Positions 7,375 to 64,000 of a stretch of DNA of 64,000 bases are shown here, piece after piece (within the stretch, counting starts at the first letter, position 1; each line of letters begins with the position of its first letter). Made by a program: the position numbers and the translations under genes. Origin of the DNA: Pseudomonadota bacterium (lineage in GTDB: Bacteria > Bdellovibrionota > FAC87 > UBA2466); the NCBI GenBank assembly GCA_043767805.1, contig JAYUGC010000014.1:21050-85049 (forward strand). Reading direction: 5' to 3'. The notes under the pieces are model-generated. The model worked only from the letters and a program-made list of their open reading frames with translations. It did no database searches and had not been told where the DNA came from.

Positions 7375-7463
7375 CAAATTTGTCGGTCGCGGTGCTTCCC
7401 GCAAGGCTAATGCGCCCGGCACGGCTGTTGCACAAGGGGTCGGCAATCAAACGGAGGCTTTTC

Positions 7464-28132: not shown

Positions 28133-28204
28133 TGGGGCGTAGAAAAGCGGTAATTCACTGGATTTTGATTCCAGCATTCCCAGGTTCGAATCCTGGCGCC
28201 CCAA
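28133..28204 (+). tRNA. tRNA-Gln (anticodon UUG)
   Basis: Cloverleaf: acceptor TGGGGCG/CGCCCCA, anticodon stem CTGGA/TCCAG with loop TTTTGAT, T-arm CCAGGTTCGAATCCTGG. Closely matches E. coli tRNA-Gln(UUG). Confidence 0.9.
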
Positions 28205-37596: not shown

Positions 37597-37612
37597 TGGC
37601 ATCGGGGTTGCA
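37597..37612 (+). promoter_or_regulatory. Candidate sigma-54 (-24/-12) promoter upstream of flgF
   Basis: TGGCAT-CGGGG-TTGCA vs consensus TGGCAC-N5-TTGCW: GG/GC spacing correct, one mismatch. Sits 65 nt upstream of the flgF ATG. Confidence 0.6.
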
Positions 37613-39965: not shown

Positions 39966-40598
39966 ATGCGTTGGATTTCCTTTTTTCTGTTTAGCGTCCT
40001 GGCGGTAGCGGCTCTTGGGGGCTGTGCCACGGCGGACTTGCGTCCCATAGTCGATAACAAAAAGCCCAAGCCGGTCGTCGTTGCGCCCCGCAAGGAATGC
40101 CCGAAAGAACTGGGCTCCATTTGGTGTGAGAACTCCGACTGGAACGACATCTATTCGGAAGCGCCCAATCGTTTCCCGGGCGATACCATTTTGGTCAAGC
40201 TCACGCCTCGCTTTAGACAGCAGATGCTCCGCCGCCTGAAGCACGACTACCCCATCCGCGTGAAAACTAAGGTCGAGGGGGTCGACAAGCTGAAGCCCAA
40301 GGTCGTCGCCAAGATCGAAAATACCAGCAATGCTTTGGCGGACGACGATACCCAGCAGATTTACGTGACCATCACCGAAGTGCTCCCGCGCTATCTCTAC
40401 AAAGTGAAAGCGCAGGAGACCGTTCGTCTCGGATCCCGCGAGCCTATCATCACCCTTGAGGGCGAGATTCGTAACCGCGACATCCAGGGCGACGAAAGCG
40501 TCAGCTCGGACAACATCATGAATAGCGCCTTCGACGTGAAGCCGTACGGCGGCGATCGCCAGATCGCCTCGGAAGAAGCAGCTGAGGAAAACTCATGA
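39966..40598 (+). CDS. flgH: Flagellar L-ring lipoprotein FlgH
   Basis: Lipobox LGGCA. About 210 aa. Position before flgI. Confidence 0.7.
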   Translation: MRWISFFLFSVLAVAALGGCATADLRPIVDNKKPKPVVVAPRKECPKELGSIWCENSDWNDIYSEAPNRFPGDTILVKLTPRFRQQMLRRLKHDYPIRVKTKVEGVDKLKPKVVAKIENTSNALADDDTQQIYVTITEVLPRYLYKVKAQETVRLGSREPIITLEGEIRNRDIQGDESVSSDNIMNSAFDVKPYGGDRQIASEEAAEENS

Positions 40599-41638
40599 AA
40601 ACCCTTTTACTGGCCCTCTCTCTGTGCGCGGGTTCGGCTCACGCGACCCGCATCAAGGATCTCGCTCAGATCCGGGGCGCGCGCACCAATCAGCTTTCGG
40701 GCTACGGCTTGGTCGTCGGTCTCTCCAATACCGGCGATAAGAGCTTCGCGCTCACCGATAGCTCGCTGGCTCTCATCGTCAAAGGGCTTGGCGTCGAGCA
40801 AAAGCCCAACGGCAAATCGGAAAGCCGAAACGCCGCGGCGGTCATGGTCACGACGGTCCTCCCGGCGTTCAGCCGGGTAGGCTCCCAGCTTGACGTCACC
40901 GTATCGTCTATCGGCACCGCCACGTCTCTCGATGGCGGCACGCTCATGATGACGGCGTTAAAAGGCGCGGACGGCAAAATTTACTCCATGGCGCAAGGCA
41001 AGCTCGTGACCACGAAGCGCAATGAGCGCATTCGCGGCGGTCCCACGGGACAGAGCATGGTGACGGCGGGTATTCCCGGCGGCGGTCTCGTCGAAAAAGA
41101 AGTGCAGTTCGACATGACCCAGCAGCACGAGATCGAGTACCAGCTGCTCGCGGCGGATTTTACGACTTCCGCTCGGATCGCGCGCGCCATTAACGAGGAG
41201 CTCGGCGGCAAGTACGCCACCCCTCAAGACGCCGGCGCGGTGCACGTGATTTTTCCTTACTCCCACACGGGCACGCCGGTGGATCTCATCGCGCAGATCG
41301 AGAACATCGAAGTCGAAGCCGACAGACGCGCGAAGATCGTCATCAACCAGCGTACCGGCACCATCGTGCTCGGCTCGCAGGTGAAAATTTTGCCCGTCGC
41401 CATCGCTCACAACAACTTGTCCGTCGAAGTGCGCGAGCCCGCGTCCATTTCGGCGAGCGGCCTGGGTCTTGAAGCCCCCGCGAAGCCCCGTCGCGTGATG
41501 ATGATGGAAAGAGGCGCCACCATGGCGGACCTCGTTTCCGGATTAAACGAAATGGGAGCGTCCGCCGACGATCTTGTCGCACTGGTTCAATCGTTAAAAG
41601 TCTCTGGGGCGCTTGTGGCCGAGGTGGTGATACAATGA
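40595..41638 (+). CDS. flgI: Flagellar P-ring protein FlgI
   Basis: Signal peptide, then RIKDLAQIRGARTNQLSGYGLVVGLSNTGD, the conserved FlgI N-terminus. 347 aa. Confidence 0.85.
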   Translation: MKTLLLALSLCAGSAHATRIKDLAQIRGARTNQLSGYGLVVGLSNTGDKSFALTDSSLALIVKGLGVEQKPNGKSESRNAAAVMVTTVLPAFSRVGSQLDVTVSSIGTATSLDGGTLMMTALKGADGKIYSMAQGKLVTTKRNERIRGGPTGQSMVTAGIPGGGLVEKEVQFDMTQQHEIEYQLLAADFTTSARIARAINEELGGKYATPQDAGAVHVIFPYSHTGTPVDLIAQIENIEVEADRRAKIVINQRTGTIVLGSQVKILPVAIAHNNLSVEVREPASISASGLGLEAPAKPRRVMMMERGATMADLVSGLNEMGASADDLVALVQSLKVSGALVAEVVIQ

Positions 41639-42859: not shown

Positions 42860-44308
42860 ATGGCGATTTCAGAAATCCTCGATATCGGTAAATCGGGCAT
42901 GGCGGCCAACCGCCAGGCGATGAATACGGCTTCGAACAACATCGCCAACGCCAATACCCCCGGTTACTCCCGCCAGCGCGCCGTTTTTACTCCTACCGAG
43001 CAGACTTTCATCAACGGCGTGCGCATCGGCCGCGGCGTGCAGGTCAAAGAAGCGCTTCGCATTCACGACGTTTTCGTCGAAAAGCAGCTCATCGAAGAAG
43101 GTAAATCTTTTGGCTCGGCGAAGGCGCGCTCGGAAGTCTTGAAGCGGGTGGAAGGCTCGCTCGCAACCGACTCCAACCGCGTGACCGATCTGATGAACAA
43201 TTTCTTCAACGACGTGCGCGAGCTTTCGGTGAACCCGGAACAGGTCGCGCTCCGCTCGTCGGTGCTGATGTCGGCAAAGAACGCGGCCGGCGGCTTTCGC
43301 GAGCTGGGCGATTCGCTGCGAGGCATTCGCGAGAACCTAGACACGCAAATCGAGGTCGACGTCGTTCAGGTCAACTCGCTCGCCAAAGAGCTTGCGGGAC
43401 TAAACGTGAACATCGCTTCCGCCGCGGCTCGCGGCGTGGAAGCCCCTCACGAGCTTGAAGATCGCCGCCAGCAGGTCATGCAGGAGCTATCCGAAAAGAT
43501 GGGCGTCGACAGCACCACCGATCAGTTCGGCCGCAAGGTCGTGCAAATCGGCGGCATCGGCGTCCTGGTCAACGGCGATCAGGTGAACGAGCTCATTACC
43601 ATGCGGACTCCGCCGTCGGAAGGTAAGGCGGCCGGCTCCGTCGACATTTTCATCAAGGACGGCAATGGGCTGTCGAAAGTCACTTCCCGCATCGACCAGG
43701 GAAGCATCGGTGGCAGCATCCACGTCCGCGACAACCTCATTACGAAATCCTTGGGCGATCTCGATCGCTCGGCGTTTCAGTTCGCCTCTCGCGTGAACGA
43801 AATCCACCGCGAGGGGGTGGGCGCCGACGGACAGACGGGCAGAAATCTCCTCACCCAGCCCGACGGCGAGCACGACGCGAGCCAGTTCTTGAAATTATCA
43901 GCCGACCTCGAAGGCAATCCGGATGGCTTGGCGCTGGGCTACACGCCCAACGCGCCTTCCGATAACCGAGTGGCTTTGGAGCTGACTAAGCTCCAGGAAG
44001 AGAAAATCGTCCCGTCCCGGAGGCAAGGCGAGGGCACGCTCTCCCAAGGCGGCGGCCAGACTTTGAACGAGTCTCTTACGACTCTCGTAGGTGAAATTGG
44101 CCTGCAGACCCGCAACGAAGAGCAGGCATTTCAGCGCCAAGACAGCATCATGAAGCAGCTGAACAACTACCGCGAGTCCGTATCGGGCGTGAACCTCGAG
44201 GAAGAGGCGATGAACCTCATGCAGTATCAGACGGTTTACAATGCTTCCGCCAAGGCCATGAAGGTCGGCGCGGAGCTCTTTGATACCTTACTTCATATCG
44301 TCGATTGA
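42860..44308 (+). CDS. flgK: Flagellar hook-associated protein 1 FlgK
   Basis: ILDIGKSGMAANRQAMNTASNNIANANTPGYSRQ N-terminal signature. 482 aa. Confidence 0.85.
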   Translation: MAISEILDIGKSGMAANRQAMNTASNNIANANTPGYSRQRAVFTPTEQTFINGVRIGRGVQVKEALRIHDVFVEKQLIEEGKSFGSAKARSEVLKRVEGSLATDSNRVTDLMNNFFNDVRELSVNPEQVALRSSVLMSAKNAAGGFRELGDSLRGIRENLDTQIEVDVVQVNSLAKELAGLNVNIASAAARGVEAPHELEDRRQQVMQELSEKMGVDSTTDQFGRKVVQIGGIGVLVNGDQVNELITMRTPPSEGKAAGSVDIFIKDGNGLSKVTSRIDQGSIGGSIHVRDNLITKSLGDLDRSAFQFASRVNEIHREGVGADGQTGRNLLTQPDGEHDASQFLKLSADLEGNPDGLALGYTPNAPSDNRVALELTKLQEEKIVPSRRQGEGTLSQGGGQTLNESLTTLVGEIGLQTRNEEQAFQRQDSIMKQLNNYRESVSGVNLEEEAMNLMQYQTVYNASAKAMKVGAELFDTLLHIVD

Positions 44309-44310
44309 TT

Positions 44311-45216
44311 ATGTCTACCAGCCGCGTATCCACAGGCCAGATGTACACCAACGCTCAACAGCACGTGGCCTCGGCCCGTGACAAAGAGCAGCTCTCGGCT
44401 GAGAAAACGTCGACTAATAAACAGATCAATCGCCCCAGCGAAGACCCCGCCGGCTGGATGCTCGCCAACACTTTGAAAGACGATCTCAGCGTGCGCGAAA
44501 CGCTGACCAAGAACGCTCAGGTCGCCAATCACGTATTGACCGCGACCGAGACTATTTTCGATCAGGCGCAACAGTACGTGAACCGCGCTTATGAGCTGGC
44601 CATCGGTAACTCCGGCACCGCCCTCGGCGGTCCCGTCGCTCGGCAGGGAGCGCTGACCGAAGTGCAGGGCATTTACGAAGGCTTGCTCCAGGCGCTCAAT
44701 TTTCGGTACGGAAGCCGCACGCTCATGGCCGGTCATCACAGCCAGGGACCGGCGTTCGATGCGAACGGAAATTTCGTGGGCGATAGCGGCGTGCTCGCCA
44801 TCGACATCGACAAGGAAACGCAAGTTCCGCTTACCATGTCCGCCGAGCGCCACATCCTCGGCATGGGCGAGAAAGGCGGCGTCAATATCGTTCAGACCTT
44901 TCACCGGCTGATGGACGGGCTAGGCACCGATGACTCCCAGATGATTCAGAGCACCTTGGAAGACATGAAGCGCGGGATCGAGCAGCTCTCCGCCGCGCGC
45001 GCCGAAGTGGGCACGCGCATGCAGAACATCGACCGTGCCTTGGGCCGCCACGCTTCCCATCTCATCAGCACGGCGGAGCAGGTTTCCAAGATCGAGGACG
45101 CGGATGCCATCAAGGCGTTCTCCGATCTCTCCCGCGATCAGACCATTCTCAAAGCCGCGATCTCCACCAGCGAGAAAATCCTCTCGCAAGACGCGGCCAG
45201 TATCTTCTTCAAGTAG
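44311..45216 (+). CDS. flgL: Flagellar hook-associated protein 3 FlgL
   Basis: Flagellin-like N-terminal (MSTSRVSTGQMYTNAQQH...) and C-terminal helices. Follows flgK with overlap. Confidence 0.75.
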   Translation: MSTSRVSTGQMYTNAQQHVASARDKEQLSAEKTSTNKQINRPSEDPAGWMLANTLKDDLSVRETLTKNAQVANHVLTATETIFDQAQQYVNRAYELAIGNSGTALGGPVARQGALTEVQGIYEGLLQALNFRYGSRTLMAGHHSQGPAFDANGNFVGDSGVLAIDIDKETQVPLTMSAERHILGMGEKGGVNIVQTFHRLMDGLGTDDSQMIQSTLEDMKRGIEQLSAARAEVGTRMQNIDRALGRHASHLISTAEQVSKIEDADAIKAFSDLSRDQTILKAAISTSEKILSQDAASIFFK

Positions 45217-53879: not shown

Positions 53880-54212
53880 ATGGCGAAACTCACTCTCAAT
53901 GAAAACGATCTCGTGATCGAGCACCTGAAAGGGAGCGGCCCCGGGGGCCAGAATAAGAACAAGCGGCAAACGGGAATTCGCATTACCCATTTGCCGACGG
54001 GCCTCATCGGCTTTGCCACTGAATGGCGGACTCAATCGGATAATTTGCGCGTTGCGAAGGAGCGTCTCGAGGAACGAATCGCCGCGCATTTCTACCGGCC
54101 CCCCAAGCGGCGGCCCACCAAGAAAACCAAGGGGTCCAAGGAACGCCGCCTCCAAGGAAAGAAGCTGCACAGTGCGGTGAAAAAGGCCCGAAATCCCAAA
54201 GGGTGGGAATAA
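53880..54212 (+). CDS. arfB: Alternative ribosome-rescue factor ArfB (peptidyl-tRNA hydrolase, GGQ domain)
   Basis: GSGPGGQNKNK GGQ motif. C-terminal basic tail RPPKRRPTKKTKGSKERRLQGKKLHSAVKKAR matches E. coli ArfB/YaeJ tail ([28 protein letters not shown]). Confidence 0.75.
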   Translation: MAKLTLNENDLVIEHLKGSGPGGQNKNKRQTGIRITHLPTGLIGFATEWRTQSDNLRVAKERLEERIAAHFYRPPKRRPTKKTKGSKERRLQGKKLHSAVKKARNPKGWE

Positions 54213-54248
54213 TGAAAGCTGCCGCCGAGCGCGGTATAATGAAAAGCG

Positions 54249-54887
54249 ATGAACTCCTTCTTCGGCGTGCTCCAGGGCTCCTACGCATATCTGCTTATTT
54301 TTCAGATCGTGATCGTCACGACCTTGTTGCTCTTTCTTCTCTGGCTCATCGCGAGACGGCTACGGGAGACGGGAGTACCGGAAACCGGGGGTGGCGGTGG
54401 CACCACCGTGGTGCAGGACCAGACCATCGTGAAACTTTCCCGGGAACAGGCTCAAAAGATCGAGGCGCTCGAGCGCCAGGTCGCAGAGCTCGATCAGGGC
54501 AGCGCGAACCTCGTGCAGGCCACCGAAAAGAGCAAGGCCTCCGAGGACAAGGTGAAGTACCTCGAACAAAAGCTACTCGAGTACGAAATCCTGCAAGAAG
54601 AGATCAGCACGCTGAGCGTACTGAAAATCGAGAATGAAAAGCTAAAGGCCCAGGTCATCGAGTTAGGGGCAACGCCGAACTTGAGAGGGGGGTCTTCCCC
54701 GCCCACGCACGCGACCGCGCCGCAAAAGGCTTCGGCTTCGCCGTTGACCAGTGACGCCTCGACGACGGGCTTAAAGCCGTTCGAGGACCTCTCCGACGAT
54801 AAACCGGCTTCTTCCACGGGCGCGCTCGAGCAGAGCGAGATCGACGGATTGATCGCAAAGATCGACTCGTTGTCGTCGAAGAAGTAG
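54249..54887 (+). CDS. Membrane-anchored coiled-coil protein (hypothetical)
   Basis: N-terminal TM helix IFQIVIVTTLLLFLLWLIA, Gly-rich linker, heptad-like coiled coil (EALERQVAELDQ...KLKAQVIEL). TATAAT box 11 nt upstream of the ATG. Confidence 0.5.
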   Translation: MNSFFGVLQGSYAYLLIFQIVIVTTLLLFLLWLIARRLRETGVPETGGGGGTTVVQDQTIVKLSREQAQKIEALERQVAELDQGSANLVQATEKSKASEDKVKYLEQKLLEYEILQEEISTLSVLKIENEKLKAQVIELGATPNLRGGSSPPTHATAPQKASASPLTSDASTTGLKPFEDLSDDKPASSTGALEQSEIDGLIAKIDSLSSKK

Positions 54888-54913
54888 CAGCGCAGCTCCA
54901 ACCGCGCCGAGCG

Positions 54914-55399
54914 CTACCGCTCGGCCGGCTGTTTGTTCATCGTCTTGTCCATCTTCAGAAGATGCTCCATCCGATAGAGCAAGACCTGCTCTTCGATGCC
55001 GTCTGAATAGTACGGCGTCCAGCCCGTATAAAAGTCCTGAAATCTCTCCAAATTCTTCACGACGCGAACCCGGGTCAGCGGCCGTTTGTCGTCGCCCTGA
55101 AGCTTTGCGAAATTAAAATCCATGGAATACCGGTACCGCTCGGGAAGCTCGATTTTCTCGGGATACTGAAACAGCAAATCGTTGTACGGCCCGTTGACGA
55201 CCTCCGTCGTAATGCGGCCCGTATCCTTGTTGCTGAGCTTCAGCGGGTAATCGGCCAAAGCCTTGAGGCTCGACGCCCAAAGCTCGTCGTAAGAACCGTC
55301 GTAAATGCGGGTATGAAACGGCTTGCGCGAAGGCGGCGTGGAACAGCCGGCGAAAACCACCGAAAAAAACAGAACCAAGAAGCCTAATCGAAGGTGCAT
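54914..55399 (-). CDS. Lipoprotein, hypothetical
   Basis: Internal ATG gives MHLRLGFLVLFFSVVFAGCS lipobox. 161 aa. Confidence 0.5.
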   Translation of the reverse strand: MHLRLGFLVLFFSVVFAGCSTPPSRKPFHTRIYDGSYDELWASSLKALADYPLKLSNKDTGRITTEVVNGPYNDLLFQYPEKIELPERYRYSMDFNFAKLQGDDKRPLTRVRVVKNLERFQDFYTGWTPYYSDGIEEQVLLYRMEHLLKMDKTMNKQPAER

Positions 55400-55710
55400 T
55401 ACGGAAAACGGTACCAGAAACCGGTGAAAAAAGGACCAAAGCCGTCGAGAAAACAACCGGCACTTCGTGTCATCCGGTCATGCAATGTGAGAGCGGCTTT
55501 CCGAGGTATTTGCGATCCTTGTTTCGAATTCGACGAAAATAGGGCGCCCAAACCCGCCGTAACCCCGTAAATCGACGATAAACGAACCTAAGAGCAACCT
55601 GCTGAAAATCTCCGAAAACTGAAAAGCCCGCCAAACGAACGCGCCCGCGAGCGTTCGATAAAACCGAGAAATGAGAAAAACCGACCATAAAAACAGGTTC
55701 CGAAGTCCGA

Positions 55711-55750
55711 TTTATTAGTTATAATTTTAGTTATCACTAATAAAAATAGG
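55711..55750. other. AT-rich segment with 8-bp inverted repeat (TTATTAGT...ACTAATAA) and TATAAT box, immediately upstream of the recombinase gene
   Basis: TTTATTAGTTATAATTTTAGTTATCACTAATAAAAATAGG in an otherwise 60% GC region. Confidence 0.5.
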
Positions 55751-55759
55751 CAATAAACG

Positions 55760-57013
55760 ATGGAACACACCTTCTTCAGCCTGAATCGTTTCTTTCGGTT
55801 TTTAGGGTTCGTTTCGCTTTTCGAGCGAGTCGCGTACCGAGTCACGCTCAAGCTGTCGGGCTGGCTACAGCGCAACGCGCAACACCGGTGGCTTTTAATC
55901 GTGGCTTTGCGCGAGGGGCAGTCCACCATGGCTATTTCGCCTTTTATCGGCGAGGCCAACGGTATTAGTGGAGAATCAAAAGGCTCGTATAACTTCGAAT
56001 ACGAGAAGGCATTGAAAACGCCTTTGCAGCTGCAGAGACACACCGACACGTCGCACGAAAATGCGGCGCTCGTTTCTTTGCCGTCCTGGGCGAGAGAGAT
56101 TCAGCCGTTTTTACAGAATCAGTTGAGCGAGCACACGCGTCGGGCTTACGAGACCGACCTGCGTCAGTTCTTTTTGTTCCTGGAAGGCCGTCTCGACCCT
56201 CACAAGCTCGATACTTTGCGGCCCGAGCATCTCATTTTGTTCCGGAAATCCCTCGAGGAGGGGCGGGTGACCGGAAAACCCATGGCGAAGTCCTCCATCA
56301 ATCGAAAGCTCGCCGTGGTGAAGAGCTTTTTGAACTGGCTGCGCTTAAACCGGGTGATTCAGGAGAATCCGGGCCAGCTGGTCAAAGGCTATCCCCAGAC
56401 TCAAGAATCGGGCTTGAACGGGCTCTCCGATCTGGAGGCCCGTCGCATTCTGGATCTTCCCGATCGCCACTCCAAGTCAGGCGCTTTGCACCAAGCCATT
56501 CTCCACGTTCTACTCTATCTTGGGCTTCGCAAGGGCGAGCTCATTGGTTTGAAGGTGGGAGACTGGGATACGGAGCGTGGAACCGCGGTATTCAAGGTGC
56601 GGGGGAAGGGCCATCGCGTTCGCATCTTGCCGCTCACCGCCTCCGTGCGCGCGGCGCTCGATCATTATTTCTGGGTCTGTGGCCGTAGCCACAGCGAGAA
56701 AGAGGCGCCTCTCTTCATGCCGACGAAAAACCCGCGCTCAGGAAAGCTCGAGAAGCCGCTCAATCCGAACTCGATTACCTATCTCGTCGCTCGCTACGCG
56801 AAGAAGGCAGGCGTCTTGAAGAAGGTCTCCCCGCACTCTTGCCGCGCCACCTGCATCTCCAATGCGCTCGACAGGAAAGCCACTCAGCGAAGCGTGCAGC
56901 ATCTGGCGGGATGGTCCACGCCTCTCATGATTCAACGCTACGACAAGCGCCGCGAGGATTTGAAGAACTCCGCCGCCTTCCTCGTCGACTACCAAGAAAC
57001 CCACGCCTCCTAG
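55760..57013 (+). CDS. Tyrosine-type site-specific recombinase/integrase (phage-integrase family)
   Basis: Core-binding domain (TRRAYETDLRQFFLFL). Catalytic domain residues LGLRKGEL (Arg), HSCRATCISNA (H-x-x-R), LAGWSTPLMIQRYDK (catalytic Tyr). Confidence 0.8.
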   Translation: MEHTFFSLNRFFRFLGFVSLFERVAYRVTLKLSGWLQRNAQHRWLLIVALREGQSTMAISPFIGEANGISGESKGSYNFEYEKALKTPLQLQRHTDTSHENAALVSLPSWAREIQPFLQNQLSEHTRRAYETDLRQFFLFLEGRLDPHKLDTLRPEHLILFRKSLEEGRVTGKPMAKSSINRKLAVVKSFLNWLRLNRVIQENPGQLVKGYPQTQESGLNGLSDLEARRILDLPDRHSKSGALHQAILHVLLYLGLRKGELIGLKVGDWDTERGTAVFKVRGKGHRVRILPLTASVRAALDHYFWVCGRSHSEKEAPLFMPTKNPRSGKLEKPLNPNSITYLVARYAKKAGVLKKVSPHSCRATCISNALDRKATQRSVQHLAGWSTPLMIQRYDKRREDLKNSAAFLVDYQETHAS

Positions 57014-57247
57014 GACAGAGTCGTCAAGGCCAGGCTCCGGGCTGTAAAGGCGGCCAGCCCTGGCCCTGAGAAATCCGAGTCCCCAAAGGGACTTAGCGCC
57101 GTGGCTTCCCCCCAATCCCGAGCTGTTCAAGAGCTAAGCGAGAGTTACCTATATATTTCAATAGCTTATGCGTTTGAGCTGGCCGGGCCGTAAGAAGCTT
57201 GGGCATCCGAATAGGCTCTAGGCAGCTGACTTCAGACTGCGCGGTCG

Positions 57248-57263
57248 TGGCACGGAACTGGCT
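57248..57263 (+). promoter_or_regulatory. Candidate sigma-54 promoter upstream of the CXXCH/Calx-beta cluster
   Basis: TGGCACG-GAAC-TGGC: GG and GC correctly spaced. -12 box TGGC vs consensus TTGC. 40 nt upstream of the TTG start, with GGAG RBS in between. Confidence 0.4.
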
Positions 57264-57302
57264 TAACTAATTAGTGCCGTCCTTAGTTTTCGGAGTCTAC
57301 GT

Positions 57303-58523
57303 TTGAATCGCCCTTTATCAGAACGTTTGTTCTTCCTTTTATCGTTCGCGTTGCTCCTTGGCTGGAGCGCGCCGGCGCACGCGCAGGCTCGCGAGCTCGC
57401 TTCCCGCATGTTTCAGCGTCTTACCGGCTACTCGCTTCCTTTGACCGATCCCCGACGAGCTCAAATGGAGGCCGCGATCACGGCTTTGAATTTCACGGGC
57501 GCCGCCGCCATCGCCACGGCCGATCCGAAGTTCATCAATGTAACCGTGCGCCAGTTCGCCGCGCCCATGTCCAATCTCGAAGAAAGCCGCCGCGTGAGGT
57601 TGAACGACTTCATCGCCATGGTGATGGGTTTCACCCGGGACAATCTCGATGCCCGCGCGCTACTCACGGACAATAAGCAATACGTCGTGGACGTCGCCAA
57701 TCCGGAAATTGCCTCCAATACTATTTTAAAACCGTGGGACCCGCTTTTTCCGACCGTTCACTATGTGTCGGTCGATCAGGCAGTCATAGACGTGCAAAGA
57801 TATTTGATCGTGCGCCCTCAAGAGATGGGCGCCACCGACGGCGCGACACCGCCCAACGTCGTCATCACACCGCTCGGCACGAACGCTTCGGGCTTGCTCA
57901 CGAGCCATGCCTGGACCTTGTCCCATCTGGTCGCGGGCACCAATCGCCGCGCCATCTCCTACGCCTTCAGAGAATTTCTCTGCACGCCCATTGAGTCACT
58001 TTCCGATACGTCGGCGCTGGATAACCGGGTTCGAAGAGACGTGGACCGCTCGCCTGGCGGCGTCCCCGCTACTTATCAGAACACCTGCCGGGGCTGTCAT
58101 GCGGGGCTCGATGCTTTGGCGGGCGCATACGCGCATTACGACTACGGCAATCGCCTCGTCGTAACGGCCGCCATTCGCCCAAAATATAGCCAAAACGCTA
58201 CTTTCAGCCCGACCTACATCACCACTGACGATTCCTGGATGAACTTGTGGACGCAGAATCAAAACGCGGCGCTCGGCTGGAGCGCTACCGCGGGTCTCTC
58301 CGGAAACGGAGTAAAGGCCTTGGGCAACATGCTCGCCAATTCGGATGCTTTTGCCAACTGCATGGCGACGCGAGCGTTTCGGGAAGTGTGCGGCGTTCGC
58401 ACCATGACGCCCGCGTTGCAGACGGTAATTACGTCGCTGAAAAATGATTTTAAGACGAACGGCTACAAGTTAAAGCGCCTGTTCGAGCGCACCGCCGCGC
58501 ACGAAAGCTGTTTGGGTAGGTAA
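57303..58523 (+). CDS. Secreted CXXCH-motif protein (planctomycete-type DUF158x-like; family uncertain)
   Basis: TTG start. Signal peptide LFFLLSFALLLGWSAPAHA. Single heme-binding-like motif NTCRGCHAG. 406 aa. Confidence 0.55.
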   Translation: MNRPLSERLFFLLSFALLLGWSAPAHAQARELASRMFQRLTGYSLPLTDPRRAQMEAAITALNFTGAAAIATADPKFINVTVRQFAAPMSNLEESRRVRLNDFIAMVMGFTRDNLDARALLTDNKQYVVDVANPEIASNTILKPWDPLFPTVHYVSVDQAVIDVQRYLIVRPQEMGATDGATPPNVVITPLGTNASGLLTSHAWTLSHLVAGTNRRAISYAFREFLCTPIESLSDTSALDNRVRRDVDRSPGGVPATYQNTCRGCHAGLDALAGAYAHYDYGNRLVVTAAIRPKYSQNATFSPTYITTDDSWMNLWTQNQNAALGWSATAGLSGNGVKALGNMLANSDAFANCMATRAFREVCGVRTMTPALQTVITSLKNDFKTNGYKLKRLFERTAAHESCLGR

Positions 58524-58526
58524 TCG

Positions 58527-61500
58527 ATGAAATCACGTTTGAAACATTTGAATCGATTCTTGCTCGCACTGACCTTGAGCTTCGTCGTGTCCGCTTGCGG
58601 ACTGAAAAACGGCAAAGACGCGACCGATCGAAAGGACGGTTCAGTCACCGGCGGCGGCTCCTTGGCACTCCGCCGAGAGGCCTTCCGGACCACGCTCTAT
58701 CCCATCGTGAAGCGAGACTGCACGGAATGCCACGTAGCCTCGCAAGCGCCGACGTTTGCCGCTTCTGACGTAGGTGTCGCTTTTAACGCCGTTATGCCCA
58801 CGGTGAACTGGGAGAGCCTCTCTTCGTCAAAGCTCGTCGCGAGAAGCACCGACTCTCATTGCGGCCGTCCGAGCTGTGCGACGGATGGCTCGCTCTTTCT
58901 GAGCGCCGTTAAGGCCATGGACGACCAGTGGAAGCAGGGAACGGCCGGCTCGATCTTGGTGAAGTGGGATGCCGCGGTGGATTCCGGCACGGAAGAAGCT
59001 TTGGTCACGACCCGGAAGGAAGCTTCCTTCACGCTTTCGCGCGCGGTCGATCGCGAGCTGACTATTTCGTATCAGGTTTCCGGAACCGCCACGCTCGGCG
59101 TCGATCATGAGCTCGCGGCCACGGGTGAGGTGGTCATTCCGGCTTTGGAAAAGACCGGCAAAATTGCTATCCCCGTGCTCGACGACGCTCTCTTTGAGCC
59201 GGATGAAACGATCGTCCTGAAGCTCCTTCCGGCCGAAGGCATTGAAATTTCCGGTTCCGACACGTTCACGCTCACGGTTCAAAATGACGCCGATCCCGCG
59301 CCGAGCGTACAGTGGAAGCTCACCTCGTCGAGCGTCAACGAAGGCGCGAGCGCGACCCTCGAGGCCGAGCTTAGCGGCGCTTGCAGCGTCGACGTCTCGG
59401 TCCCGGTCACGGTTGCCGTCCCGGCCGGAGTCGCGGCCGCCGACATGCAGTTATCCAATGCTACCCTTCGCATTCCCGCGGGCATGCTCACGGGCTCCGT
59501 TACTCTCTCCCGGGTGCAGAACACTCTGGACGAAGTGGACGCGGTAGTAACGGTCGGTTTAGGAAATCCCACCAACGCCACGCTCGGCGCTAATACCACG
59601 CACTCTTTGACCGTTGCCGACGACGATGCGGCTCCCGCGGTGCAGTGGGCTCTGGCCTCTAGCTCCGTGAACGAGACGGTGGGCATGGCGACTTTTAACG
59701 CGACGTTGAGCGCCGTGAGCACGAAGACCGTCACGGTCTCCTATCAAATCAGTGGTGCCGTGGACGCGGCGCAAAGAGGCTTTTCGAATGGTTCGGTGAC
59801 GATCGCCCCGGGGCAGAGCTCGGGCTCGTTCCAGGTCGCGGTTACCAACGATCTGACTTTCGAAGGCCCCGAATCGATCATTATGACGCTTTCGTCGCCC
59901 GTGAATGCGTCTCTCGGCGCTCGCACGACCCATACCGTAGCGCTCGTCGACGATGAAACGGCGCCTCTCGCCGATTGGTCTCTGACCTCGTCTTCCGCGA
60001 GTGAGTCCGCGGGAACGGTTAATATTACGGCGAGGCTCAGTCGCGCGAGCCAGGCTAACGTCACTCTGAATTATACGGTCGCGGGCACGAGCACGAGCGC
60101 GGACCACGCTCTTGCCGCTGGTTCTTTCACCATTGCGGCGGGAGATACCACCGATATGCTTAGTTTCAATCTGACCAACGACGTTTTGGATGAGACGGAT
60201 GAGACCGTGGTGGTCACGCTCGCTAGTGTTACGGGCGCGTCGCTTGGCACGAACCTGATTCATACCCTTACGATTACGGATGACGATGCCTCTCCGGATT
60301 TGAATTTTGTTTCCGCGGCGCAGACCGTGGGCGAGAACGCCGGCACCGTGACGGCGACCGTCAGTCTCAGCGCGGCTAGTGGAGGAGCGGTAAGCGTTCC
60401 TTATACCGTCTCTGGAACGGCGACCAATCCCGCCGATCACAATCTCGCGGCGGGAACTCTGAGCTTCCCGGCGGGGACGACTTCCAAGACGATCTCTTTC
60501 AGCGTGGCCCAGGATTCCACGCCCGAAGCCGACCAGACGGTGATTATCACGCTCGGTACGCCGACCGCGGCTACGCTCGGCACCGGGCAAGTGCATACCG
60601 TCACGATTACCGAAAACACGCTCATTCCGATCGTGCAGTGGGGCCAGGCCACGCGGACGGTAGCCGAGGGCGTTGGTTCCGTGGTGATCCCGGTAACCTT
60701 GTCTTCTCAGTCTTCGAGCGCCATTACGGTGCCGGTTGCCGTGAGCGGCACGGCGACTGCCGCCGATTTTACTTTGTCGTCGGCGACTCTCTCCGTTCCG
60801 GCCAATTCGGCCACGGGAAGCGTCACCCTCACCGTCACTCAAGATACGATGGATGAGAACGACGAAACGGTCATTCTAACTCTGGGCACTCCCACGAACG
60901 CGTCTCTCGGCGCGACCTCGGTGCAAACGATAACTCTTACCGACGACGATAATGCTCCGAACGTGCACTTCAATGCCGCGACTCAAACCGTGGTGGAAGG
61001 CGCGACCGGCGCGGTTACGGTTACCGCGGCACTTTCCGCGGCGAGCGGCAAGGCGGTTAGCGTGCCCTTCACGGTCAGCGGCACGGCGAGCCGCCCCGGA
61101 GACCACAATCTCGTCAACGGAACCTTTAACTTCGCGGCCGGCGCTACCGCTGCCATGGTCTTGTTCAACCAGGCCGACGACACCATCTTTGAAGGCAATG
61201 AAACGATTATCCTGACTTTGGGCACGGCCACCAATGCGACGGTGAACACGCCGTCGGTCCTTACGCTGACTATTACGGACAATGAAGCCATGCCGGCCGT
61301 GCAATGGGCGATTGCCTCGCAAACGAAGCTGGAAAACGCGGGAACAGTACAGATTGCCGCGAACCTCAATCGCGCGAGCACCGCCGCCATCAGCGTGCCT
61401 TACGTGATTACCGGTACGGCGACGAGCACCGATCACAACTTGGCGGACGGTACCTTGCAGTTTCCCGCGGGCTCGCTTTCTGCGAGCGTCGTGCTCACCC

Positions 61501-62462
61501 TCTTAAACGACACCGTCGACGAGGATGCCGAGACGGTGATTTTGACTTTGGGCGCACCCACGGGCGCCACTAAAGGGGCGACGGTCACCCATACGTTGAC
61601 GATTACCGACGATGATCCTCTACCGGTGGTCACTTTTTCGGCGGCCGCGCAAACGGTGGCCGAGTCTTCGACCGCCACCCTTACGACGAACGTTCGCCTC
61701 AATACGGTGAGCGGCCGTGACGTGACGATTCCCATCGCGGTCAGCGGCTCGGCCTCGCAGCCTAGCGATCATAATTTGACGGTGACCAGCGTCGTCATTC
61801 CGAAGGGCACCTTGAGCGTGCCAATTAGCTTTAGAGTCTTTCAGGACACCGTTTACGAAGGTACGGAGTCGATTGTCATTAAGCTTGGTGCTCCCATGAA
61901 CGCCGCGGCCACTCTCGGAACGCCGGCGGAGCACATTGTCAGCATCGCGGACGACGATGCGCCTCCCGTGCTTCTGGTGGGAGGCAACTTAGCGCTGCAG
62001 TCGTTCAAGCAGTACGAGGAAAAGCTCACCAATCTTTTCGATTCCCCAATCGCGGTCAATAACGGCGTGGTCTACAACGCCGCCCTTCAAGTCGTTTCCG
62101 ATGACGGCGACCCGGGCGAGTTCAGCGATCCGATGGCCTCGGCCTATGTCGCCGCCGCCCACGCTCACTGCCGGGCGTTTGTCGTTGCCGAGGGGGCCCT
62201 GGCGCAAGCCGCCCGCACAATCAACGCGGGCGCGGACTTATCGGTTTACGCCAATAACACGGAAGCGACGAAGCGTACCGTGATTCGCCGGTACGTACAG
62301 GCGCTTTGGACCCGGGACCCGCTAGCGACAGAAGAAACGATCCTGCTCCAACTGATGGACGCGACCGCCGCCACGGTACTGCCCACCGGCAGTCCCTCCT
62401 TTAAGGCACACGTCAGCGTGTGCACGGCCGTCGCCGGAAGTCCCGAAGGAATTCGTAATTGA
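58527..62462 (+). CDS. Giant lipoprotein with N-terminal CXXCH domain, about nine tandem Calx-beta-like repeats and a distinct C-terminal domain
   Basis: Lipobox LSFVVSACG. DCTECHV motif. Nine roughly 110-aa repeats, each ending in an acidic ...T(I/V)TDDD(A/P)P... boundary and containing DE.DETVILTLG...NA.LG, typical of Calx-beta. 1311 aa. Confidence 0.7.
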   Translation: MKSRLKHLNRFLLALTLSFVVSACGLKNGKDATDRKDGSVTGGGSLALRREAFRTTLYPIVKRDCTECHVASQAPTFAASDVGVAFNAVMPTVNWESLSSSKLVARSTDSHCGRPSCATDGSLFLSAVKAMDDQWKQGTAGSILVKWDAAVDSGTEEALVTTRKEASFTLSRAVDRELTISYQVSGTATLGVDHELAATGEVVIPALEKTGKIAIPVLDDALFEPDETIVLKLLPAEGIEISGSDTFTLTVQNDADPAPSVQWKLTSSSVNEGASATLEAELSGACSVDVSVPVTVAVPAGVAAADMQLSNATLRIPAGMLTGSVTLSRVQNTLDEVDAVVTVGLGNPTNATLGANTTHSLTVADDDAAPAVQWALASSSVNETVGMATFNATLSAVSTKTVTVSYQISGAVDAAQRGFSNGSVTIAPGQSSGSFQVAVTNDLTFEGPESIIMTLSSPVNASLGARTTHTVALVDDETAPLADWSLTSSSASESAGTVNITARLSRASQANVTLNYTVAGTSTSADHALAAGSFTIAAGDTTDMLSFNLTNDVLDETDETVVVTLASVTGASLGTNLIHTLTITDDDASPDLNFVSAAQTVGENAGTVTATVSLSAASGGAVSVPYTVSGTATNPADHNLAAGTLSFPAGTTSKTISFSVAQDSTPEADQTVIITLGTPTAATLGTGQVHTVTITENTLIPIVQWGQATRTVAEGVGSVVIPVTLSSQSSSAITVPVAVSGTATAADFTLSSATLSVPANSATGSVTLTVTQDTMDENDETVILTLGTPTNASLGATSVQTITLTDDDNAPNVHFNAATQTVVEGATGAVTVTAALSAASGKAVSVPFTVSGTASRPGDHNLVNGTFNFAAGATAAMVLFNQADDTIFEGNETIILTLGTATNATVNTPSVLTLTITDNEAMPAVQWAIASQTKLENAGTVQIAANLNRASTAAISVPYVITGTATSTDHNLADGTLQFPAGSLSASVVLTLLNDTVDEDAETVILTLGAPTGATKGATVTHTLTITDDDPLPVVTFSAAAQTVAESSTATLTTNVRLNTVSGRDVTIPIAVSGSASQPSDHNLTVTSVVIPKGTLSVPISFRVFQDTVYEGTESIVIKLGAPMNAAATLGTPAEHIVSIADDDAPPVLLVGGNLALQSFKQYEEKLTNLFDSPIAVNNGVVYNAALQVVSDDGDPGEFSDPMASAYVAAAHAHCRAFVVAEGALAQAARTINAGADLSVYANNTEATKRTVIRRYVQALWTRDPLATEETILLQLMDATAATVLPTGSPSFKAHVSVCTAVAGSPEGIRN

Positions 62463-62490
62463 ACGTGAGCCTTCCCGAAAGGGGTAACCC

Positions 62491-63918
62491 ATGAAGAAAA
62501 GAAACCGAGAAAAATTCGTTGGGATGCGGCACCAGGATCACCCGAGACCGGCGACCCGGCGCGAGTTTCTCGCCCAAGGCATGGTGCAGGCCAGCAGCTT
62601 CCTCATGATGCCCGCTATCTTAAAAGGGATGTTTGGGTCCGAGATAGCTCAAGCCGTGTGCCCGAGCTCGGGAAACCTCCCGGGCCTTTTGCCGCTCATC
62701 ATTTTGGACATGGCGGGTGGGGCGGGCTTACATGGTAATTTCATCGCGGGTAAGGAAGGCGGCGCTCAGGACTATTTGAGCAGCTATATGACCATGGGCG
62801 TGCCCTTTAATCCGGGAAGTACCCCGGGCTCCGTCGATACGAGATTTGGCGCTCCCATGTGGACGACGGTCAGCAATATCCGTAAAGGGATGCTCGGGAA
62901 AATGAGCACGCAGGCGATGGCTAACACCAGCATCATGACGGTGTGCCATACATCGGCCGATGATTCGAAGGGCAACCGGCACTCTCCGTTGATCCTCGCT
63001 TCGAAAGCGGGCGCGGCGGGCACTGTACTGAGAACCGGCGTTGGCTTGGGAGGAAACTCCTCGTCGCCTATCGTCGACCAAAGTCTCATTCCGTTTCAAA
63101 TGCGGTCGCCGACTTCGCTGCGCGATTTGTTCGGCTATGGTTCGGTGTCGGTGCTCGATACCGATCCCGCGAAGCAGGCTTTTTCGGCGGCTATTCACAA
63201 GCTCGGTCAGGCGCAGGCGCCGCTGCTTCAGCCGCTCGCTAATGCCGCCGGGCTAAATAACGCGTTTGAGTGCGCGCACCTCGCCCAAGGGGCGTTGGTC
63301 GGAAATCTTGCCGCGCTCGATGCGCGCCTCGATCCGGCGGTGCAGGCGGTCTACGGAGTGACGGCGACTTCCACCGATACGACTTCGGTGCGCGCCGCGG
63401 TCGCTTACCACGTGCTTCAGGGGCATACGGGCCCCGGTGTCATCCAAATCGGCGGTTGCGACTATCACACTTCGGATCGGACCACGGGAAATACCAAAGA
63501 CGAAGAGATCGGCGTCGAGCTCGGTAGAATTTTGGAGCTCGCTCGTCGCCTGGGAAAGGGCGTCGTTGTCGTCGGTATTTCTGACGGCAGCGTCTACTCG
63601 AGCCAGACCGTTCTCGATCCGGTCACCCAGGAATTGGCCTGGATCGGCGACGCGGGCTCAAAAGGCATGAGCTTTCTCGCCTGCTACAAGACGACCGGAA
63701 AACCTACGGTCCAGAAATCTCAAATCGGACATTTTCTAAATACCAGTAATCCGGGCGCCGACCGCAGTACGTTCTTCGGCTCGAACCCGGCGATGGTGGC
63801 CAATATCTTATTCGCCAACTATCTCAATCTGAGTGGCAAGCTTAGTCTCTTCGACTCAGTCGTCGCGGCCGCGGCCTTTCCGCGCGCGGAGATGACCGGT
63901 ATCCTCGGTCTCGGCTAA
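62491..63918 (+). CDS. Tat-signal secreted protein (DUF1552/DUF1501-like partner protein; family uncertain)
   Basis: Twin-arginine motif TRREFLAQG followed by hydrophobic h-region. 475 aa. RBS AAAGGGG. Confidence 0.5.
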   Translation: MKKRNREKFVGMRHQDHPRPATRREFLAQGMVQASSFLMMPAILKGMFGSEIAQAVCPSSGNLPGLLPLIILDMAGGAGLHGNFIAGKEGGAQDYLSSYMTMGVPFNPGSTPGSVDTRFGAPMWTTVSNIRKGMLGKMSTQAMANTSIMTVCHTSADDSKGNRHSPLILASKAGAAGTVLRTGVGLGGNSSSPIVDQSLIPFQMRSPTSLRDLFGYGSVSVLDTDPAKQAFSAAIHKLGQAQAPLLQPLANAAGLNNAFECAHLAQGALVGNLAALDARLDPAVQAVYGVTATSTDTTSVRAAVAYHVLQGHTGPGVIQIGGCDYHTSDRTTGNTKDEEIGVELGRILELARRLGKGVVVVGISDGSVYSSQTVLDPVTQELAWIGDAGSKGMSFLACYKTTGKPTVQKSQIGHFLNTSNPGADRSTFFGSNPAMVANILFANYLNLSGKLSLFDSVVAAAAFPRAEMTGILGLG

Positions 63919-64000
63919 TCAAGAAGAGGAAGGCCTATTTACTTTTCAAAATGAGAGGGGGCTTCGGGAAACCGCCCAGGAGGAAAACGGCCACCTTGGT

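Follow-up and report, generated by a model that had tools for sequence, protein, structure and literature searches.

A secreted protein with one CXXCH motif, a giant lipoprotein with a long array of Calx-beta repeats and a Tat-exported protein are encoded one after another close to the end of a 64,000-nucleotide stretch of Bdellovibrionota DNA (referred to here as the window). Do these three proteins belong together, and how did the lipoprotein acquire its size?

Gene layout and transcription

An open reading frame check returned three plus-strand genes, A, B and C, exactly as they had been described in an earlier reading of the DNA made without database searches (the sequence-only reading). 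The coordinates, lengths and strands of that compact three-gene cluster were all borne out (Table 1). The intergenic gaps are 3 nt (A-B) and 28 nt (B-C), and a single operon of three genes is the best explanation of the locus. The window ends 82 nt past the end of C, and a further gene downstream of C is possible; a potential ATG start is located at 63951.

Table 1. Positions of the genes and features of the A-B-C locus within the window
Feature	Coordinates	Strand	Description	Basis
Sigma-54-type -24/-12 promoter-like element	57248..57263	+	TGGCACGgaacTGGCT	11/12 specified positions of TGGCACG-N4-TTGCW
Gene A	57303..58523	+	406 aa, TTG start, secreted, mostly helical, invariant CXXCH, remote PSCyt3/PSD2 relative	
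Sec signal peptide of A	57303..57383	+	aa 1-27, MNRPLSERLFFLLSFALLLGWSAPAHA followed by Q (AHA/Q)	from translation
CRGCH of A	58086..58100	+	aa 262-266, presumed heme c attachment site	C262, C265 and H266 invariant in homologues
PSD2 (DUF1585)-like C-terminal region of A	58299..58484	+	aa 333-394	PF07624, below cut-off
Gene B	58527..62462	+	1311-aa lipoprotein: D-type CXXCH domain, nine Calx-beta repeats, B-core	
Lipoprotein signal peptide of B	58527..58598	+	aa 1-24, lipobox VVSAC24 (VSAC), Gly at +2	from translation
CXXCH domain of B	58662..58943	+	aa ~46-139, CTECH 65-69, HCG..C 110-116	homologous to the N-terminal domain of D
Nine tandem Calx-beta repeats of B	58941..61955	+	aa 139-1143	PF03160 and self-built repeat HMM
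B-core	61980..62444	+	C-terminal domain of B, aa 1152-1306 (~155 aa), two invariant Cys	HMM of short B proteins
Gene C	62491..63918	+	475 aa, Tat-exported, alkaline-phosphatase-superfamily fold	
Twin-arginine signal of C	62491..62658	+	aa 1-56, DHPRPATRREFL, RR at aa 23-24, AQA/VC	conservation

A putative sigma-54 promoter had been claimed for the cluster. The site on which this claim was based lies 40 nt upstream of the start of A and keeps the GG-N10-GC spacing. The relaxed sigma-54 pattern occurs once in the window, compared with 0.02 occurrences expected from shuffled sequences. When one mismatch is allowed there are three such sites in the window against 1.35 expected, so the site is suggestive rather than proven. 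That part of the claim which concerns the presence of the element thus stands, but the element is not shared by relatives: in 25 related loci the DNA preceding A has no site with 10/12 or more matching positions. The window also has a gene for a sigma-54 activator of the GAF-AAA+-HTH type at 5662-7374, 50 kb from the locus, and no link between the two was seen. The element is best described as a putative promoter, at which transcription of A-B-C may begin.

A search of 56900-64000 for sigma-70-like promoters was negative, as was one of 54000-64000 for Rfam RNAs. Terminator-like sites around the locus occur at chance level. It is unlikely that the locus is part of a genomic island tied to the upstream tyrosine recombinase, since there is no shift in G+C content across 54-64 kb and the only tRNA gene of the window is situated far away, at 28133-28204. 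An anti-phage defence system was ruled out by the lack of PADLOC hits. A tblastn comparison of C and A with plasmids gave no match.

Anatomy of the three proteins

Protein A has both the Sec signal and the single CRGCH motif that had been attributed to it. Its TTG start is preceded by GGAG at a distance of 7 nt, and homologues align over 96-100% of the protein when it is counted from this start. The public gene call (P0032) begins at an internal Met, is 352 aa long and lacks the signal. Residues C262, C265, H266 and D270 are invariant in sets of 70 and of 121 homologues, and four further Cys are also invariant in the family. Judging from these sequences, A presumably bears one c-type heme.

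With PSD2 (PF07624), for which the gathering cut-off is 25.8, the C-terminal region of the window's A reaches 20.3 bits. PSD2 is matched at E<=1 in 53 of the 70 homologues (best E 1.9e-9), and many A homologues have a precomputed PF07624 hit. PSCyt3 (PF07627) is not matched at E<=1 by the window's A and is matched weakly in 31/70 homologues (best E 7.4e-4); other weak matches in the family are to PSCyt2 (9/70), DUF1800 (2/70) and PSD1 (1/70). The structure of A is predicted with confidence and has no solved structural relative. It does not match a cytochrome fold, and the A-family profile finds only chance-level matches among the PDB sequences.

Protein B is, as had been proposed, a giant lipoprotein with a CTECH motif close to its N-terminus. 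NCBIfam and Pfam give weak matches of the lipoprotein-signal type to its signal peptide. No Pfam model matches the CXXCH domain that follows, and a homologue search seeded with this domain gave no candidates. Nevertheless, the domain could be identified with the help of protein D, a CXXCH protein encoded after C in most related loci: an HMM of the D family matches aa 11-139 of B with E=1.8e-24 (9e-23 in a second run).

The middle of B consists of nine Calx-beta modules, in agreement with the sequence-only reading. PF03160 matches B in eight stretches with a score of 199.3 bits, far above the cut-off of 27 (E=2e-59), and TIGR00845 matches at its model positions 490-616, which belong to the NCX1 region. 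Nine units of ~112 aa, each with E<=1e-38, are resolved by a repeat HMM derived from B itself, at aa 139-254, 254-366, 365-476, 475-586, 585-697, 696-807, 806-919, 918-1029 and 1028-1143. Ig-like alternatives (I-set, LapA) reach just E 0.02-0.07. Upon alignment of the repeats, most of the nine units were found to keep the acidic ND..DE.DET and T(I/V)xDDD motifs, which are predicted to be clusters of Ca2+ ligands.

The C-terminus of B is a domain in its own right, as had been supposed. It is matched (E=7e-20) by an HMM made from the short B proteins, 171-229 aa in length, of other loci. The two Cys of this B-core are invariant among 26 sequences, none of which matches a Pfam family. Identity with PSD5/DUF1595 was rejected, with matches in 0/26.

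The twin-arginine signal claimed for C is canonical. It contains the motif TRREFL, with R23 and R24 invariant in sets of 30 and of 40 homologues and with H17, P20 and T22 each at least 90% conserved. The model of C shares the core alpha/beta fold of the alkaline-phosphatase superfamily with solved members, at 7-13% sequence identity, and it is the fold alone that is established for C. Comparison of the C-family profile with PDB sequences gave chance-level matches only. The conserved residues D73, S128, D158, D324, H326, D365 and D387 are situated at strand ends and helix starts of the predicted secondary structure; D73 is replaced by Asn in one subclade and S128 by Gly in a few members. From their places in the fold, D73 (where strand 1 ends), S128 (where a helix begins), D324/H326, D365 and D387 are candidate active-site residues.

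No match at E<=1 to the HMMs of DUF1552 (PF07586) or DUF1501 (PF07394) was obtained for C and 39 diverse members of its family. NCBIfam gave no match of C to either, and there is no DUF1501 or DUF1552 seed sequence among the Tat-motif ORFs of the related loci.

Conservation of the module and origin of the giant B

The module is kept together across dozens of genomes, mostly of Bdellovibrionota. In the synteny sample, which consisted of non-redundant related loci for which 2.5 kb or more of upstream DNA was available, 33 of 35 loci have a homologue of A before C, in the same orientation, with a B-core gene either in the interval or joined to A. The sequence-only reading had named failure of the genes to occur together elsewhere, and generic repeats flanked by well-characterised families, as grounds for its own rejection, and neither of these refutes it. 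B-core is present as a short protein in 22 loci, as part of a long protein in 8 and fused to A in 4. A typical B elsewhere has ~190 aa and lacks Calx-beta repeats. On these comparisons the module is ancestrally four-part, comprising A, B-core, C and D.

The D domain and the separate D gene show a complementary distribution. All eight long B proteins, among them the window's, contain the N-terminal CXXCH domain of D, which none of the 31 short or fused ones has. In 23 of the 31 loci with short or fused B the gene directly after C is a separate D, compared with none of the eight long-B loci. The CXXCH motif is present in all aligned D domains and in the N-terminal domain of the window's B. The presence of the D domain in long B, its absence from short or fused B and the missing D gene indicate that the giant B is composed of a D domain, a Calx-beta array and B-core, that is, it is a fusion that took in the CXXCH domain of D. 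Fusions of A with B and of B with D occur among the loci. D matches PSCyt1 weakly (E 4.5e-4) and also Cytochrome_CBB3 weakly; the C-terminal domain of D from locus L005 scores 27.4 bits against the Cytochrome_CBB3 cut-off of 27.

Among the loci examined, Calx-beta repeats are limited to the window and to the clade of L001 and L034. The Calx-beta block is, from its distribution among orthologous sequences, a lineage-specific insertion; that it is an insertion had been surmised in the sequence-only reading. The heme-motif domain adjoins the anchor in the window's B and is distant from it in L001, which argues against a simple rigid-spacer role of the array. Other lineages have Laminin-G (L006) or extra D domains, or genes for RCC1 propellers beside the module.

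Relation to known systems and possible function

The locus had been likened, loosely, to the DUF1592-family plus DUF1552 pairs of planctomycetes and Bdellovibrio. One part of this likeness holds, namely the remote homology of the A family to PSD2 and, weakly, to PSCyt3. C has a Tat signal and lies next to a CXXCH/PSD-type protein, but it gave no HMM match to DUF1552 or DUF1501. As C lacks HMM similarity to these families and B-core lacks a Pfam family, homology to the PVC (Planctomycetes/Verrucomicrobia) systems rests on A, weakly on D, and on the shared architecture. We take the module to be a divergent counterpart, mostly from Bdellovibrionota, of the planctomycete PSCyt/PSD modules with DUF1501 or DUF1552.

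As in the PVC PSCyt3-PSD proteins of the DUF1592 family (DUF1588/PSCyt3, DUF1585/PSD2) with their DUF1552 partners, a secreted CXXCH protein ends in a PSD2-like domain, a conserved partner gene adjoins it, carbohydrate- or protein-binding inserts are optional and no function has been assigned (PMC5615132). Here, in contrast, the equivalent functions are split over the small proteins A, B-core and D, the window's A remains below Pfam thresholds and the module occurs mainly in Bdellovibrionota. PSD3, PSD4 and PSD5 (DUF1587/1592/1595) gave no match at E<=1 in A, B, B-core or D. The PVC modules of DUF1501 with PSCyt1, PSCyt2 and PSD1 likewise have a twin-arginine partner enzyme beside CXXCH proteins, Laminin_G_3-type inserts in the CXXCH protein and clusters of up to four genes (PMC3542564); for Tat partners and Laminin-G insertions in analogous modules see also PMC5615132. 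The DUF1501 modules differ from the present one in the family of the partner and in the PSCyt2 and PSD1 domains, of which the A family has few matches, and neither a Calx-beta insertion nor a B-core scaffold is reported for them in the passages of PMC3542564 on these modules.

C was also compared with other members of the alkaline-phosphatase superfamily: NPP/ENPP phosphodiesterases, S1 sulfatases, PhoK/PafA phosphatases and EptC/MCR-1 phosphoethanolamine transferases. C has no sequence-level match to these enzymes and no sulfatase C/S-x-P-x-R signature, and it has a Tat signal, a conserved DHPRP pre-motif and a constant pairing with CXXCH proteins. The repeats of B resemble the Calx-beta domains of the Na+/Ca2+ exchanger (CBD1/CBD2) and of bacterial surface arrays in their strong PF03160 match and their acidic motifs. 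They differ in being an insertion in a lipoprotein, with a CXXCH domain on one side and a scaffold domain on the other, and in being absent from most orthologues.

We propose that the locus is an operon for a conserved four-part cell-envelope module, found mainly in Bdellovibrionota, in which the D domain and the Calx-beta array have been built into B; we judge the chances of this reading to be about even. B-core usually has a predicted lipoprotein or Sec signal. B would be a lipid-anchored scaffold that binds A, as suggested by the A-B fusions, and that carries the heme domain of D, as suggested by the B-D fusions. C would fold in the cytoplasm, where it would probably be loaded with metal, before export by the Tat system, and may be the catalytic subunit, acting on a substrate of the phospho- or sulfo-ester type. 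The heme-motif domains could take part in a redox or oxidative step or sense a ligand. The Calx-beta array, an optional and lineage-specific accessory, may form a long stalk, probably stiffened by Ca2+, or a binding surface. Cell-surface adhesion or a redox function of the locus may be entertained as hypotheses.

The locus might instead be a true but diverged PVC pair with the same function, either of the DUF1592 family (PSCyt3/PSD) with DUF1552 or of PSCyt1/2-PSD1 with DUF1501. This is a possibility, though an unlikely one. The PSD2 and PSCyt3 matches of the A family, the PSCyt1 match of D, the Tat-signal partner adjoining A and the Laminin-G inserts of L006, which have a parallel in the PVC modules (PMC3542564), are all consistent with it. 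It agrees less well with the scores of the window's own A (PSD2 below cut-off, PSCyt3 unreported at E<=1), with the lack of PSD3, PSD4 and PSD5, and with a C family and a B-core that match none of the expected models. The proposal made by Kamneva et al. (2012) for PVC modules, electron transfer to proteins or sugars (PMC3542564), would lead to a periplasmic or extracellular electron-transfer chain, with A and the D domain as cytochromes, an external acceptor and C as a non-catalytic or accessory protein. Invariance of the CXXCH motifs is in line with such a chain. We nevertheless regard it as improbable: each protein has no more than one or two heme motifs, in folds that are not cytochrome-like, A has no cytochrome fold match, neither a membrane quinol dehydrogenase nor a multiheme conduit is conserved nearby, and the acidic and His residues conserved in C make up a candidate active site of the kind seen in the alkaline-phosphatase superfamily.

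On another reading, the CXXCH motifs would be disulfide or metal sites and the module a secreted hydrolase, C, with structural partners, scavenging phosphate or sulfate esters and comparable to the widespread pairs of DUF1800 with DUF1501. The fold and Tat signal of C, the weak DUF1800 matches and the four further invariant Cys in A would be accounted for in this way. However, each of the 121 A homologues and every aligned D domain retains the complete CXXCH motif with its His, so that heme c attachment fits better than a disulfide, and the Cytochrome_CBB3 score of the L005 protein points in the same direction; we consider the hydrolase without heme very improbable. Calx-beta arrays are typical of large bacterial adhesins, and with its nine repeats and lipoprotein signal B might be a stand-alone, Ca2+-dependent surface adhesin, with A and C as unrelated neighbours and the triad no functional unit. 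There is hardly any likelihood of this, and it is disfavoured by synteny. What is conserved in B is the C-terminal core. It is nearly always encoded between A and C, in most loci no Calx-beta repeats accompany it, these being restricted as described above, and B has been fused to A and to D.

The four-part module may be taken further. On a more speculative view, which we think doubtful, A, B, C and D would form an undescribed envelope enzyme complex, in which a catalytic subunit with the alkaline-phosphatase fold needs dedicated heme proteins of new fold for the redox-coupled processing of ester-linked envelope or polymer substrates. Such a complex would have arisen for the most part in predatory Bdellovibrionota and might serve to modify or harvest components of the prey envelope, with Calx-beta, Laminin-G and RCC1 as target-binding modules.

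In planctomycete and verrucomicrobial genomes there are many CXXCH/PSD proteins with a Tat-exported DUF1501 or DUF1552 protein as partner, as has been noted since 2004-2012. To our knowledge, no function is known for any such pair. The proteins described here are annotated merely as hypothetical, because no Pfam or NCBIfam model matches A as a whole, B-core or C above threshold. The module would represent a streamlined, split version of the PVC design in another phylum. Its parts, A, a ~190-aa B-core, C and D, are separate small genes and thus offer an experimental handle, and the natural A-B and B-D fusions suggest which parts work together. The alkaline-phosphatase-superfamily fold of C and the confident model of A are further handles. 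The module may thus serve as a tractable minimal system, with concrete hypotheses for the whole class of modules.

Gene layout and promoter-like site

The cluster consists of three adjacent genes encoding a secreted CXXCH protein (A), a giant lipoprotein (B) and a Tat-exported protein (C). All three open reading frames of the sequence-only reading were recovered on the forward strand, with gaps of 3 nt between A and B and 28 nt between B and C. A opens with a Sec-type signal (AHA/Q after residue 27) and has one CRGCH motif (residues 262-266), in agreement with the secreted 406-aa protein proposed. In the public annotation, gene A (P0032) is called as 352 aa, from an internal Met, and so lacks the signal peptide (57303-57464 affected). 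More evidence favours the TTG at 57303 as the start: a GGAG precedes it by 7 nt, the signal peptide is retained, and alignments with homologues cover 96-100% of the query when translation begins there.

Coordinates of features in the window and of RCC1-repeat genes in related loci
Feature	Position	Strand	Description
A	57303-58523	+	406 aa, TTG start (ORF translation)
B	58527-62462	+	1311 aa (ORF translation)
C	62491-63918	+	475 aa (ORF translation)
Sigma-54-like element TGGCACGgaacTGGCT	57248-57263	+	11 of 12 specified positions of TGGCACG-N4-TTGCW
GAF-AAA+-HTH sigma-54 enhancer-binding protein	5662-7374	+	Sigma54_activat E=1e-66, GAFTGA motif
Second near-consensus sigma-54 site CGGCACGGCTGTTGCA	7417-7432	+	43 nt past activator gene's stop
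Third sigma-54-like site TGGCATCGGGGTTGCA	37597-37612	+	one mismatch
FlgI	40595-41638		flagellar
FlgK	42860-44308		flagellar
Flagellin-family (FlgL-like)	44305-45216		flagellar
Xer-like tyrosine recombinase	55760-57013	+	Phage_integrase and N-terminal SAM-like domain; directly upstream of operon
Secreted RCC1-repeat genes	L009 15-1079; L012 5673-6968; L015 2928-4667; L017 472-1329		directly before A or after D
Secreted RCC1-repeat genes	L024 6916-8271; L029 2678-3808; L021 12612-14276; L027 1857-3011		directly before A or after D

The element TGGCACGgaacTGGCT lies 40 nt upstream of the TTG start. It is the single occurrence of a relaxed sigma-54 pattern in 64 kb, against 0.02 expected; if one mismatch is permitted, the count rises to three, where 1.35 would be expected. 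The sigma-54 activator encoded in the window indicates that the organism uses sigma-54, making a promoter upstream of A plausible. From its match to the consensus, TGGCACGgaacTGGCT is a plausible sigma-54 promoter of A-B-C, as had been proposed, but 25 related loci show no conservation of such a site ahead of A. Between 56900 and 64000 no sigma-70-like promoter was detected, and terminator-like sites occur at chance level. Of the other two sites, CGGCACGGCTGTTGCA sits at the start of a 328-aa ORF without a Pfam match and TGGCATCGGGGTTGCA precedes the next listed ORF (39966-40598) by about 2.4 kb, and the flagellar genes come after that ORF.

A possible new ORF, MRGGFGKPPRRKTATL..., begins with an ATG at 63951 (+), 33 nt past the stop of C, and meets the window end at 64000. 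On the contig of the closest relative (P0002), a 236-aa gene without a Pfam match lies 44 nt downstream of C. The recombinase ORF as called has about 115 residues ahead of its first domain. There is no sign of a mobile island or integrated element, with neither a G+C shift nor a tRNA gene near the locus. The window also encodes flagellar genes, CoA-transferase genes and an MFS transporter, as well as a 110-aa ORF (53880-54212, +) with the GGQ motif GSGPGGQNKNK, resembling a small peptidyl-tRNA-hydrolase or release-factor-like domain protein.

Gene B and the composition of the module

The N terminus of B is a lipoprotein signal with the lipobox VSAC24, followed by CTECH at residues 65-69. Pfam matches Calx-beta (PF03160) in eight stretches with 199 bits against a cut-off of 27, whereas Ig-like alternatives reach no better than E 0.02-0.07; the NCBIfam match falls in the NCX1 region (model positions 490-616). 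With a repeat HMM built from B itself, residues 139-1143 divide into nine tandem units, all at E<=1e-38 and most with the acidic motifs kept. The count of about nine Calx-beta repeats was therefore correct, as was the description of a lipoprotein with a CTECH motif and a distinct C-terminal domain. This last domain, the B-core, matches no Pfam family and has two invariant cysteines.

Loci around C homologues were collected from exact-protein look-ups, a genome-collection scan (26 loci) and a metagenome scan (19 loci), and their ORFs were classified by HMMs built in this analysis. The loci contain 47 non-redundant C genes. Upstream sequence of 2.5 kb or more is available for 35 of them, and in 33 of the 35 an A homologue precedes C on the same strand. 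The gene bearing the B-core is placed between A and C. In 22 loci it encodes a short protein (171-229 aa) that has either a lipoprotein or a Sec signal, in 8 it encodes a long protein, and in 4 the B-core is fused to the C terminus of A. A separate CXXCH protein, D, is encoded directly downstream of C in 23 of 31 loci with short or fused B; in the others the contig ends or D lies elsewhere in the locus. D is about 260-425 aa long and has a signal or lipobox; it contains one or two CXXCH motifs and weakly matches Cytochrome_CBB3 and PSCyt1.

In window B, residues 11-139 match the CXXCH domain found at the N terminus of D (E=1.8e-24), whose pattern is AF..TV.P.....C..CH...P.FA..D...AY....F...S......HCG..C. 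All eight long B proteins contain this domain and none of their loci has a separate D after C, whereas it is absent from all 31 short or fused B proteins. The D domain is thus found either inside long B or as a separate D, a strictly complementary pattern. Together with the match of an HMM from short B proteins to window B residues 1152-1306 (E=7e-20), this identifies the 1311-aa B as a fusion protein, its order, as read from the sequence, being lipid anchor, D-type CXXCH domain, nine Calx-beta repeats and B-core. The three-gene arrangement is co-conserved and represents a four-part module in condensed form.

Among the loci examined, Calx-beta is confined to the window and the L001/L002/L034 clade of related loci, and it does not define the module. 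In that clade the A-B-C triad is duplicated in tandem (L001/L002 3328-17684; L034 1-10596); the two B proteins (1801 and 916 aa) each have Calx-beta, and the CXXCH domain is placed after the repeats. An opposite-strand FKBP gene lies between the two copies. Long B proteins of other loci have Laminin_G_3 (L006) or additional D domains (L025, L028, L048, L051). RCC1-type beta-propeller genes adjoin the module in eight genome-collection loci (within L007-L032) and in the P0011 and P0012 contexts, and the propeller is a possible fifth component, which would be optional. Four loci have an adjacent gene for a pentapeptide-repeat protein of about 510-780 aa (L013 12527-15625, L018 3558-7100, L016 12968-13467, L011 5712-8060). 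A CARME-family (PF07942) methyltransferase gene adjoins the triad in two otherwise different loci (L001 1979-3262, L006 13192-14460).

By their labels, 19 of the 26 genome-collection loci belong to Bdellovibrionia, Bdellovibrionales, Bacteriovoracia or Oligoflexia, all within the phylum Bdellovibrionota; the remainder are labelled Pseudomonadota, Steroidobacteraceae or unclassified.

Families A and C and described gene modules

A word-indexed search gave 125 relatives of A at E<=0.001. The CXXCH motif is kept in 121 of 121 A sequences. Also invariant or almost invariant are C227, C353, C363, C403, the AGTNR motif and DVxRxPGG. Window A scores 20.3 bits against PSD2 (DUF1585), below the Pfam cut-off of 25.8. 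Among 70 homologues, PSD2 is matched by 53 (best 1.9e-9), PSCyt3/DUF1588 by 31 (best 7.4e-4), PSCyt2 by 9 and DUF1800 by 2. On these matches and the sub-threshold score, A is distantly related to the planctomycete PSCyt3-PSD2 unit; by Pfam's criteria it is not a member.

C has the expected 475 aa and twin-arginine motif TRREFL; the RR is invariant in the family and the preceding DHPRP motif nearly so. Residues 1-58 (62491-62665) include a conserved Cys about two residues past the predicted AxA cleavage site, without a lipobox fit. C matches nothing in Pfam, NCBIfam or PDB sequences, and none of 31 relatives from a word-indexed search has a Pfam domain. An exhaustive profile search gave 1368 50%-identity clusters at E<=1e-3, with 605 at E<=1e-30. 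C has an alkaline-phosphatase-superfamily fold (AlphaFold model from 30 sequences, pLDDT 81, pTM 0.81). D73, S128 (>=90%), D158, N162, D324/Y325/H326, D365 and D387 are conserved family-wide and fall at strand ends or helix starts in the model's secondary structure, in positions where this superfamily puts its metal ligands and nucleophile; they are candidate sites for these roles.

The closest described systems are two modules of Planctomycetes and Verrucomicrobia. Passages of Kamneva et al. 2012 (PMC3542564) describe a DUF1501 plus PSCyt1/PSCyt2/PSD1 module with a twin-arginine partner, Laminin-G insertions and clusters of up to four genes, whose function they call unclear. PSCyt3-type genes adjoin a second unknown family, of whose functions, according to a passage of He et al. 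2017 (PMC5615132), nothing is known. Full-text literature searches under the DUF names turned up no functional characterisation. The A-B-C-D module resembles both in architecture, but it fails the Pfam tests for PSCyt3, DUF1552 and DUF1501, with PSD2 a borderline case. The suggested likeness to DUF1592-family plus DUF1552 pairs holds for architecture and the weak PSD2/PSCyt3 matches, but not, by HMM, for the Tat partner: among 40 diverse C family members, none matches DUF1501 or DUF1552 even at E<=1. Apart from this, the fusion and the sigma-54 site, the earlier interpretation was largely right.

Proposed working of the module

The four secreted parts are co-inherited, A-B and B-D gene fusions occur, the CXXCH motifs are invariant and binding-type insertions are optional. 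A, B, C and D would together form one envelope complex, with B as a lipid-anchored scaffold. Under the sorting rule of E. coli, its Gly at +2 would direct B to the outer membrane. The B-core would bind A, with the D domain on B or beside it. C would be folded in the cytoplasm, probably loaded with metal there, and act as the catalytic subunit for an ester-type substrate. The heme-motif domains may sense a ligand or supply a redox or oxidative step.

The Calx-beta array may be a Ca2+-stiffened extension or a binding surface. A Calx-beta unit is about 4 nm long and nine units about 35-40 nm, which, if fully extended, exceeds the width of the periplasm and hints at surface exposure. A purely rigid spacer is doubtful, since the position of the heme domain relative to the array differs between the window and L001.

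The anatomical and evolutionary account of the module is very probably right. The specific biochemical model is tentative and rather unlikely to hold in detail, and the explanation as a whole has about an even chance of being correct. Three unannotated families make up one strictly conserved module, in which A has a confident predicted model and no solved structural relative. The split architecture makes it a minimal system for a class of gene modules that has long gone unsolved.
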